From a virus (lineage: Duplodnaviria; Heunggongvirae; Uroviricota; Caudoviricetes), in IMG/VR virus record IMGVR_UViG_2695420569_000026, positions 1 through 17,071 of that record: a stretch of 17,071 nucleotides of DNA. One strand, 5' to 3'. Position numbers: made by a program. Shown in pieces: positions 12,001-17,071 of the stretch; position 1 is the first letter of the stretch; every line of letters starts with the position of its first letter.

Positions 12001-15000
12001 ACCGTTTTTCCGCACTATCAGACGGCATGAGGAGTAAATATCAGTATGCTCTCTCTCATGCTTAGCGCCACTGAATGCCACCGCCGGAATAACAATCTGC
12101 CGGTCAAACGGCTGATCATCATAAACCCTGACGGTAATGCTCCCTGATGGCCACCGCTCCGGTGCACGGGAGTCCCGGGGGAAAGCTTTGCCCACTGTTT
12201 TAACGAGATCGCCTTCAATCTGGTTCGCGGACAGTTTTCCCAGAACCCGACAGTTCTCGTTAATCGTGACGTTGTTGAGCGTCCCGGAATTCGCATTCAC
12301 GTTACCGCTGATATCAGCATTTCTTGCGGTCAGCCTGCCCTCCGGCGTCAGGGAAAACGTCGGGGGATTGCCGGACGAGGTGATACTCACCGCAAACAGC
12401 CGCTTCAGGAACACATCGTTCATGAACAACTGATTCCCCTGCGCCACAAATAACGGCGTGGTGTTGCCGTCCTCCGGGTTAATCATCGCAATACGGTCAG
12501 CCAGCAGCAGTATGTTGCTCAGGGGCTGGCCATCAGTATCCTCAATCCCCGCTCCAATACCGGCAACATAGGGTATGCCATTTTTTGTTTTCTGTACCTT
12601 CAGCATGTAAAGTGCAGCCAGGTCATCATTTGTGTCCTTCTGCACGCGCTGTATCTGCTGTATGGTGGCGCTCTGGTCCTCCAGCGTTTTACTGACCGTC
12701 TGTGTGATTTCATTGCGGGTTTCTGTGATGGTGGTCTTCATCTCCGCCATCTCATCTGCAAGCTGGCTGTTATCTATCAGTTCCCACAACCCCTGAGCCA
12801 GATGCAGTTTTCCTATTTTTTCCCGGAACAGCCCCAGATACCCTTCTGCATCATTGCTGGCCCGGCCACTGGCTTCCACAAAAGCAGATTTCCCCACCAG
12901 GTTGACGCTGCGCACGTAAAACCAGAAATCCTTCCCGGGCTTAATGTGCGGGCCGGATACACTCCACTGACTGCCGGTCCCCAGATAACGGGCAGAGGTT
13001 TCCACCTGAGATGTATCTGCGATTTTTGTCTCCGAAAACCAGAACTCAAACTGTACCGTCGGGTCATACACCGCAAGACGCGGGACCGCTGTTATCTGAA
13101 AATAGCCCGGTGTCAGCTCAATCGTGGCGGGTACCGCAGGTGCATTAATCCTGAACGTGGTGGTGGCCGGTTCCCCCTGCTGGCCATAACTGTTAATTGC
13201 CCTGACTGTCAGGGTGTATTCCCCGAGCGGCAGACCACTGAAACGATGCTCTGTATCCGCAGTGATGGCGGTGGTCACCAGACGGCTGTCTTCTCCGCTT
13301 CCGCTGGTCAGGCGCAGACTGAAGCGCACACCCTTCACCACCCGCGGCGTGTCCCATTTCGCCTGTGCCAGATACTGGCCGTCAGCTGCGCTCACCTCCA
13401 CCGTCAGGTGCTGCACTGCCGGAGGGATGACGCTGTTCAGGGTGCCGCTCTGGTCGCCGTCAAAGTGCGCCCCGTTATCCACGATGGCTTCTTTCTCCGG
13501 CACGTGCTGCACCGCCGTGATGGCAAAGGTGCCGTCCGTGTTTTCCCGGATGGAGACACAGCGGAACAGGCGACGACGCAGTGACGGCAGGGAGAGTCCC
13601 CATACACCGTATGTCTCCACACCATCAGGCAGGGTGCTGACCTGTATCCGGTCCGGCGCGGGGTGTGCGGTGATGTCCACACTCACCGGCTTACCGCTGC
13701 CGTTAATCAGGTTCACCGTGGCGGCACCGGTCTCCGGCAGTGTCACCTCACGGTCCAGCGTCAGGGTGCGGCTGGCGGCATCGATGGACAGGACACGTCC
13801 GCCGGTCATGGTCCCGGCATAGTCGTTATCACAGATTTCAATGATGTCACCGGGTGTGTGACGCAGCCCCTGTGACCCGAGCGTGAAATCCACCGTCTGC
13901 GTTTCCAGCTGTCCGGTCTTTATCACCCACAGCCCGGCACGGTGGGCCTGACCGCGACTGGTGCAGCCGAACGCATCCATCTTCAGCAGGTTGCGCCCGT
14001 AGCGCAGTATGGCTTCCGGGTCTTCCACCAGTTCCGTGGAGGTCTGCCAGCCGTTCTGCGGGTCGGTGTAATTCACCTCCACCGCCGTGTGAGACGCTGA
14101 CGTTCGTTCAGGACCGCCCGTCGGATGTGGTGTGGCCGTACACCAACAGCGATGTGGTGGTGGATGATAACGGCGTGGTGTTGCCGTCCTCCGGGTTAAT
14201 CATCGCAATACGGTCAGCCAGCAGCAGTATGTTGCTCAGGGGCTGGCCATCAGTATCCTCAATCCCCGCTCCAATACCGGCAACATAGGGTATGCCATTT
14301 TTTGTTTTCTGTACCTTCAGCATGTAAAGTGCAGCCAGGTCATCATTTGTGTCCTTCTGCACGCGCTGTATCTGCTGTATGGTGGCGCTCTGGTCCTCCA
14401 GCGTTTTACTGACCGTCTGTGTGATTTCATTGCGGGTTTCTGTGATGGTGGTCTTCATCTCCGCCATCTCATCTGCAAGCTGGCTGTTATCTATCAGTTC
14501 CCACAACCCCTGAGCCAGATGCAGTTTTCCTATTTTTTCCCGGAACAGCCCCAGATACCCTTCTGCATCATTGCTGGCCCGGCCACTGGCTTCCACAAAA
14601 GCAGATTTCCCCACCAGGTTGACGCTGCGCACGTAAAACCAGAAATCCTTCCCGGGCTTAATGTGCGGGCCGGATACACTCCACTGACTGCCGGTCCCCA
14701 GATAACGGGCAGAGGTTTCCACCTGAGATGTATCTGCGATTTTTGTCTCCGAAAACCAGAACTCAAACTGTACCGTCGGGTCATACACCGCAAGACGCGG
14801 GACCGCTGTTATCTGAAAATAGCCCGGTGTCAGCTCAATCGTGGCGGGTACCGCAGGTGCATTAATCCTGAACGTGGTGGTGGCCGGTTCCCCCTGCTGG
14901 CCATAACTGTTAATCGCCCTGACCGTCAGGGTGTATTCCCCCGGCGGCAGACCGCTGAAACGGTGCTCTGTATCCGCGGTGATGGCGGTGGTCACCAGAC

Positions 15001-17071
15001 GGCTGTCCTGACCGCTTCCACTGGTCAGGCGCAGACTGAAGCGCACACCCTTCACCACCCGCGGCGTGTCCCATTTCGCCTGCGCCAGATACCGGCCGTC
15101 AGCTGCGCTCACCTCCACCGTCAGGTGCTGCACTGCCGGTGGGATGACGCTGTTCAGGGAACCTGACTGCGGCTCAAAGCGGGCACCGTTATCCACGATG
15201 GCTTCTTTTTCCGGTACGTGCTGCACCGCCGTGATGGCAAAGGTGCCGTCCGTGTTTTCCCGGATGGAGACACAGCGGAACAGGCGACGGCGCAGTGACG
15301 GCAGGGAGAGTCCCCACACCCCGTATGTCTCCACACCATCAGGCAGGGTACTGACCTGTATCCGGTCCGGCGCGGGGTGTGCGGTGATGTCCACACTCAC
15401 CGGCTTACCGCTGCCGTTAATCAGGTTCACCGCCGATGTACCTGTCTCCGGCAGGGTAGCATTTTTCGCCGTCAGTCGCCCGTCTGGTGTCAGGGAAAAT
15501 GCCGGAGGATTACCGCCGCTGGTAATGGTGGGAGCCGTCAGATATTTCAGGAACACTTCATTCATGAATATCTGATCGCCCTGACCAACAAACATCGGCT
15601 TTGTGTTGCCATTCGCAGGATTAATCATCGCAATCCTGTCTGCTGCCAGCAGCACCTGACTCTGCATGCCGTCGGGGGTGTTCTCAATACCGGCACCGAT
15701 ACCCGCAATATAAAGGCGTCCGTCCTGCATCTGCTGCAGCTTCACTGCCCACATGCTGTTCAGGTTATTATTTGTATCAACCTGAACCTTCTGTATCTGC
15801 TGGATCGCTGCACTCTGGTCTTCCAGTTTCTTATTGACGGTCTGTGTTATTTCATTGCTGACATCCGTTATGGACGTCCTGATTTCAGTCAGGTCAGGCG
15901 CAAGCTGACCGTTATCAATCTGCGTCCACAGCTCCTGAGCCAGATGGGTTTTCCCTATCTCGCCTTTGAAAAAATCCAGATAGCCGGATGCATCATCACT
16001 CGGCTGACCAACAGCCTCCACGAATGCCGATTTGCCAACGGTGTTCACACTGCGGATATAAAAGTAATAATCATGGCCCGGTTTGATATTGATACTGGCG
16101 GCTATCCAGTACAGCCCCGTGCCAAGGTAGCGGGCTGTGGTTTCAACCTGCCTGATATCGGTAATCCGCGTTTCCGAAAACCAGAACTCAAACTGTACCG
16201 TCGGGTCATACACCGCAAGACGCGGGACCGCTGTTATCTGAAAATAGCCCGGTGTCAGCTCAATCGTGGCGGGTACCGCAGGTGCATTAATCCTGAACGT
16301 GGTGGTGGCCGGTTCCCCCTGCTGGCCATAACTGTTAATTGCCCTGACTGTCAGGGTGTATTCCCCGAGCGGCAGACCACTGAAACGATGCTCTGTATCC
16401 GCAGTGATGGCGGTGGTCACCAGACGGCTGTCTTCTCCGCTTCCGTTGGTCAGGCGCAGACTGAAGCGCACACCCTTCACCACCCGCGGCGTGTCCCATT
16501 TCGCCTGTGCCAGATACTGACCGTCAGCCGCGCTCACCTCCACCGTCAGGTGCTGCACTGCCGGTGGAATAACGCTGTTCAGGGAACCTGACTGCGGCTC
16601 AAAGCTGGCCCCGTTATCCACAATGGCTTCTTTTTCCGGTACGTGCTGCACCGCCGTGATGGCAAAGGTGCCCTCCGTGTTTTCCCGGATGGAGACACAG
16701 CGGAACAGGCGACGACGCAGTGACGGCAGGGAGAGTCCCCATACACCGTATGTCTCCACACCATCAGGCAGGGTGCTGACCTGTATCCGGTCCGGCGCGG
16801 GGTGTGCAGTGATGTCCACACTCACCGGCTTACCGCTGCCGTTAATCAGGTTCACCGTGGCGGCACCGGTCTCCGGAAGTGTCACTTCACGGTCCAGCGT
16901 CAGGGTGCGGGTGGCAGCATCAATGGACAGGACACGTCCGCCGGTCATGGTCCCGGCATAGTCGTTATCACAGATTTCAATGATGTCACCGGGTGTGTGA
17001 CGCAGCCCCTGTGACCCGAGCGTGAAATCCACCGTCTGCGTTTCCAGCTGTCCGGTCTTTATCACCCACAG

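Follow-up and report, generated by a model that had tools for sequence, protein, structure and literature searches.

Homologous recombination between lambdoid prophages drives their diversity, and the similarity among these prophages causes assembly difficulties in draft Escherichia coli genomes (PMC4587872). In the prophage of E. coli O145:H28 and O157:H7 that carries the type III effector genes espN and nleL, a single 3,477-nucleotide (nt) J gene precedes lom. We analyzed a stretch of viral DNA (Caudoviricetes; IMG/VR record IMGVR_UViG_2695420569_000026, positions 1 to 17,071; hereafter the window, 17,071 nt in full) that differs from that prophage in having J fragments: beyond lom, it contains 7 kb consisting solely of J-gene material. 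By exact-product look-up, the window is the entire contig CYAW01000085.1 (locus L002) of draft assembly GCA_001286145.1. An earlier note on this DNA had described three copies of a J common region, 13345-13931, 15062-15455, and 16520-17071, as an array (here and below, positions refer to the whole window, in which genes lie on the minus strand). The three stretches are, as the note had it, homologous parts of a lambda-like J gene. We conclude that positions 10203-17071 very probably represent four J contig pieces that were scaffolded head to tail with single Ns, and that the copies are three J alleles displaying ordinary mosaicism.

J fragments and the joins between them

The anatomy of the region was derived from self-comparison and from mapping onto the 3,477-nt J of O145:H28 RM12581, which supplies all J coordinates used here. 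In the direction in which the gene is read, the region starts with fragment A (15459-17071, minus strand), a piece of a J allele referred to as X. It covers J nt 1345-2948, holds the copy at 16520-17071, and runs off the contig end. Fragment B (14179-15457, minus strand) belongs to a third J allele, covers J nt 1534-2820, and holds the copy at 15062-15455. At 14178/14179 the end of B is fused, through a 12-nt microhomology (CCACGCCGTTAT) and without an N, to an inverted J piece of 86 nt (14093-14178, plus strand), which corresponds to approximately J nt 1065-1150 of the B allele. Fragment C (11800-14091, minus strand) is a piece of J allele Y that extends from J nt 1186 to the stop codon and holds the copy at 13345-13931. 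Fragment D (10203-11798, minus strand) is the 3' part of allele X, from J nt 1898 to the stop codon, and is contiguous, without an N, with lom, stf, nleL, and espN.

When the window was compared with the deposited CYAW01000085.1 record, the two were identical except at 15458, 14092, and 11799, where the record has N and the window has A. These three positions are exactly the three breaks in J collinearity: the first separates A (J nt 2948) from B (J nt 1534), the second separates the inverted piece from C, and the third separates the C stop codon from D (J nt 1898). A 985-amino-acid open reading frame (ORF) at 14108-17065 reads across one masked N, and in this A/B fusion the Pfam domains Ig_J, Ig_J_second, and Phage_Tail_Tip are each duplicated. 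In fragment C, Phage-tail_3, Ig_J, Ig_J_second, Phage_Tail_Tip, and Ig_GpJ_C were all detected above the curated cut-offs; fragment D contains the last four of this gpJ series. The common region shared by the three copies comprises the last part of Phage-tail_3, the first Ig-like domain, and the linker between them.

Each of fragments A, B, and C aligns in one piece to a full-length J in complete genomes, with best full-length matches of 97.8%-98.1% (A against the normal J of O157:H7 493/89, 97.8%; B against normal J genes, 98.1%). No whole-fragment match at 100% was found for A, B, or C in complete genomes, where the parental alleles were matched only block-wise. The last 672 nt of fragment D show 0 differences from the J of O157:H7 493/89. 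Within the window, A and D overlap over 1,061 nt at 100% identity (15459-16520 = 10738-11799). Fragments B and C agree at 100% from about J nt 2080 on (approximately 750 nt; 14179-14915 = 12462-13198), whereas the upstream half of B is distinct. All four J fragments are identical over a block of about 115 nt (approximately J 2080-2195), which separates the common region from the region where X and Y diverge.

The expected arrangement is one J of about 3.5 kb directly before lom and stf. Here the window has fragments, of which D adjoins lom, and the 5' part of the gene lies beyond the contig end. When A and D are merged through their 1,061-nt overlap, the product is a J from nt 1345 on that is collinear with the J of O157:H7 493/89 and is followed by the intergenic region and lom. 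Judged from the sequence, this merge would restore the normal J-lom-stf-nleL-espN layout. Fragments A and D would then be the J that truly adjoins lom-stf-nleL-espN, with B and C coming from other J loci.

A second assembly and complete genomes

Exact-product look-up with the 519-amino-acid ORF of fragment D also returned contig CYBE01000123.1 (locus L003) of a second draft, GCA_001286205.1, an independent assembly of a sister isolate; the 760-amino-acid ORF of fragment C gave no record in the same kind of look-up. The second contig carries A (1,446 nt, 100%), B (1,180 nt, 100%), and C, D, and lom together (4,278 nt, 1 mismatch), and all its joins are again single Ns. Two of the three joins lie at other J coordinates. 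In L003, A is joined to B at J2832|J1092, versus J2948|J1534 in the window, and the join from B to C lies at J2712, with no inverted piece. The C-to-D join is the same in both assemblies, with the N at position 5362 of L003.

The inverted piece is the one discontinuity in the window that is joined without an N. The bases that are inverted in the window are in the forward orientation in L003, where they are continuous with the B allele, and junction 14178/14179 is spanned by no complete E. coli genome. A real microhomology-mediated rearrangement at this junction is unlikely, given the normal orientation in L003 and the lack of any complete genome that spans the join. The inverted piece is probably a chimeric contig end.

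We also searched for the array in complete E. coli genomes, among which the source strain is not included. Of the 5,426 genomes, 4,599 gave a match; none had the array, and at the best-matching places the whole 7-kb query collapses onto a single J gene of 2.5 kb. A tandem array would be expected to have contiguous copies with sequenced junctions that recur in relatives, whereas the record has an N at each of the three joins, two of which differ in L003. What is seen at the breaks in collinearity is gap characters together with flanks that overlap in J coordinates, the pattern expected of a scaffolding artefact. Given that the joins are Ns, that L003 disagrees about their positions, and that the arrangement is absent from complete genomes, the claim that the copies lie in one contiguous array is unsupported.

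We therefore consider it very unlikely that partial J genes truly stand in tandem in one prophage and have exchanged patches by gene conversion or repeated recombination. In favor of such an array, the order of the scaffold is similar in the two assemblies and the C-to-D join is identical, and the long tracts of 100% identity between copies (A and D over 1,061 nt, B and C over approximately 750 nt) are what recent conversion would give. However, a genuine novel junction is unique sequence, which an assembler would read through and not break at that very point, and single-copy J genes elsewhere already contain the variant blocks (see below). A related possibility, that the locus is real and consists of a complete J beside silent partial J cassettes, with the Ns hiding short junctions that are difficult to sequence, strikes us as extremely doubtful. 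If it were true, the cassette store could recombine into the expressed J and switch tail-tip or receptor specificity.

According to the explanation that we favor, a scaffolding program would have placed the four J contig pieces head to tail, with one N between each, and the Ns would have been converted to A in the window. The three copies would then be corresponding parts of three different J alleles. These most likely reside in different lambdoid prophages of one EPEC- or EHEC-like (enteropathogenic or enterohemorrhagic) E. coli genome. The scaffolder presumably used single Ns for predicted overlaps, which we take to be behavior of the SSPACE type; our literature search gave no citable statement to this effect. 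A literature search for the assembly and whole-genome shotgun accessions of this contig found nothing. The joins resemble single-N scaffold joins of short-read drafts in having one N per discontinuity, overlapping flanks, positions that depend on the assembly, and no counterpart in finished genomes. They differ in the join at 14178/14179, where an inversion and a 12-nt microhomology are found in place of an N.

Several considerations weigh against a purely artefactual origin of the arrangement. A scaffolder orders contigs by read-pair links, so some physical proximity of the pieces may exist. The C-to-D join, identical in both assemblies, may have arisen twice as the same artefact, or it may be genuine, with one base left unsequenced. 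Each of the identical downstream halves (A and D, B and C) occurs twice in the scaffold, which is not normal output of a plain de Bruijn assembler. Finally, the phase of C across the invariant block of about 115 nt may be a choice made by the assembler and not a natural haplotype, a point that bears on the mosaic and is taken up below.

Mosaic differences among J alleles

The earlier note based its case on amino acid motifs shared in a patchwork, and the motifs are quoted correctly, provided that the copies are numbered in the reading direction of the gene (A, 16520-17071; B, 15062-15455; C, 13345-13931). B differs from the other two in having GTSA and DGRY where A and C have GAAT and DGQY; C carries a different 10-residue variant in place of the FEPQSGS of A and B; and A has ENTEG and LTNGSG where B and C have ENTDG and LTSGSG. 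The differences are rather more than the "handful of sites" mentioned there. Within the copies as delimited above, there are 37 variable sites and one 3-nt indel in 397 columns, distributed as 14 B-specific, 14 C-specific, and 9 A-specific differences. Pairwise, A and B differ by 23 substitutions, A and C by 23, and B and C by 28. A tabulated difference at B position 15458, outside these limits, is one of the masked Ns.

Patchwork sharing alone is not evidence of recombination, since whatever three sequences share can be placed on a tree, each of them having a branch of its own. The arrangement of the sites along the sequence is more telling. Within the same coordinates, the sharing patterns are clustered, with 16 runs versus 25.2 ± 2.8 in shuffles (P = 0.0012), and over the whole common region the runs test gave P = 0.0006. 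Over the whole B/C overlap, no shuffle reached the observed clustering, the reason being that C follows A in its upstream part and thereafter agrees with B at more than 200 consecutive sites. A 3SEQ-style triplet maximum-excursion statistic is uninformative with such unbalanced site counts (P = 1.0), and we relied on the runs test and on four-gamete and PHI-type (pairwise homoplasy index) tests. The mosaic pattern is real and non-random.

The most divergent patch lies at 13423-13501 in C, 15140-15215 in B, and 16565-16640 in A. It contains the 3-nt indel and the S/RFEPQSGS motif versus the C variant, and it sits in the linker just ahead of the first Ig-like domain of J. A compact C-specific cluster in such a place might be explained without recombination, by local rate differences on a simple tree, with a hypervariable linker under diversifying selection. 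This explanation is almost certainly wrong. The C-specific patch is found at 100% over 121 nt in the normal J genes of FORC_042, O39:NM F8704-2, and E110019, and thus behaves as a discrete haplotype common to unrelated genomes. The switch of C from matching A to matching B argues against it as well, as does the strong spatial structure among J genes of complete genomes, in which about half of the informative site pairs fail the four-gamete test.

The latter result comes from a panel of 10 reference J genes from complete genomes. With the reference alleles alone, 48% of informative site pairs failed the four-gamete test, and none of 5,000 shuffles made neighboring sites as compatible as they were observed to be; overall, four-gamete failure was 48%-50% with a PHI-type P < 0.0002. 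The blocks that characterize the A, B, and C haplotypes reappear among these genes, differently combined. The GTSA block of B (15433-15455) and its J1601-1673 block were found in O121 RM8352 and O157 2571, and its J1976-2071 block occurs with an X-type downstream part in O55:H7 USDA5905 and with a Y-type downstream part in 2014C-3011. The upstream extension of B shows 0 differences in 189 from O157 2571. Both signs of recombinational mosaicism, clustered incompatible sites and blocks reassorted in other alleles, are present. Programmed diversification by a diversity-generating retroelement or a shufflon was considered and rejected: there is no reverse transcriptase or invertase among the identified ORFs of at least 180 amino acids, the substitutions are of all types and show no restriction to adenine, and the repeats are direct.

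Compared with finished genomes, allele C appears to be a hybrid in its own right. Over its upstream 1,040 nt, it shows 2 differences from the sodC-linked J of the EPEC strain E110019. Its receptor-binding half is close to the J of the O157 sodC prophage (9/590 and 14/654 differences), as against 70/590 and 220/676 differences from E110019. This combination of blocks is absent from the 10-allele panel, and the question arises whether it exists in the cell. The mosaic could be partly a product of assembly, with B and C as chimeric paths through collapsed repeats and some block combinations, such as the E110019-like upstream part of C with its Y downstream part, absent from the cell. Short reads may fail to phase across the invariant block of about 115 nt, and the second contig piece contains the demonstrably odd inverted join. 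We nevertheless regard this possibility as unlikely. The independent assembly of the sister isolate agrees with the window to the base over A, B, and C. Most of the clustering falls within the 400 nt upstream of the invariant block, where the haplotypes match natural alleles almost perfectly, as the comparisons of C with E110019 and of B with O157 2571 illustrate. Moreover, natural alleles carry the J2000-2230 block linked to both X- and Y-type downstream parts. Despite the doubt about the phase of C, the pattern thus seems to be genuine for the most part, as it is reproduced in L003 and natural alleles match each half almost perfectly.

Since mosaicism is equally strong among single-copy reference J genes, it predates the scaffold and is unrelated to it. 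Genomes that bear J have a median of 3 J loci and up to 15, and B-like and C-like alleles occur in different prophages of one genome, at 2.87 and 3.63 Mb in O157:H7 2571 and at 2.32 and 1.60 Mb in 2014C-3011. The patchwork in J would have accumulated as lambdoid phages and prophages, both co-resident and incoming, underwent homologous recombination over time. We conclude that mosaicism of this kind, already known for J, extends across the population and fits homologous recombination among lambdoid prophages. The earlier view that the copies did not arise by one simple duplication is borne out by the clustered sites and by the blocks reassorted in J genes of complete genomes. Of the two processes that the note had named, recombination among at least three parental alleles is supported by the strongly positive four-gamete and PHI-type tests, and gene conversion within a tandem array is not supported, the joins being Ns.

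Neighboring genes and comparison with known prophages

The ORFs of at least 180 amino acids identified in the window are, apart from the J fragments, an IS2 transposase fragment (33-785), espN (1328-4729), nleL (5320-7668), stf, which encodes a collagen-repeat tail fiber (8155-9474), and lom, which encodes an Ail/Lom outer-membrane protein and is the usual downstream neighbor of J (9533-10132), all on the minus strand. Within stf, collagen-like Gly-X-Y repeats are located at 8389-8692 and form repeat family D5, whose seven copies, each 43 nt long, are spaced at multiples of 9 nt. The two arms of a 65-nt inverted repeat are 86% complementary; one lies inside espN (3528-3592) and the other (959-1023) downstream of the IS2 fragment. 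The latter arm lies near the position of a GogB remnant annotated in the RM12581 prophage, which is equivalent to approximately 796-951 of the window.

The main value of this analysis is one of caution, as multi-copy prophage genes can take on the look of tandem arrays, and ORFs that of fusions, when single-N gaps are masked as ordinary bases. The underlying recombination, by which J alleles of co-resident prophages exchange blocks, is real, yet it is well known in EHEC and EPEC prophage pools and poses no new question.

With respect to known systems, window positions 1-10198 match the EspN/NleL effector prophage of O145:H28 and O157:H7 at 99.0% over their full length, and the gene order, IS2 fragment, espN, nleL, stf, lom, and J, is common to both. 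The J nearest to the lom-adjacent J of the window (type X, fragment D) sits in a different prophage, in O157:H7 493/89. The J alleles themselves have the features of the mosaic J alleles of lambdoid EHEC and EPEC prophages, namely the same domain set, J-lom-stf synteny, a conserved center followed by divergent receptor-binding parts, and reassorted blocks. We see no substantive difference between the two; the alleles described here, at 97%-98% and not 100% identity to their nearest relatives, are new combinations of the same kind.

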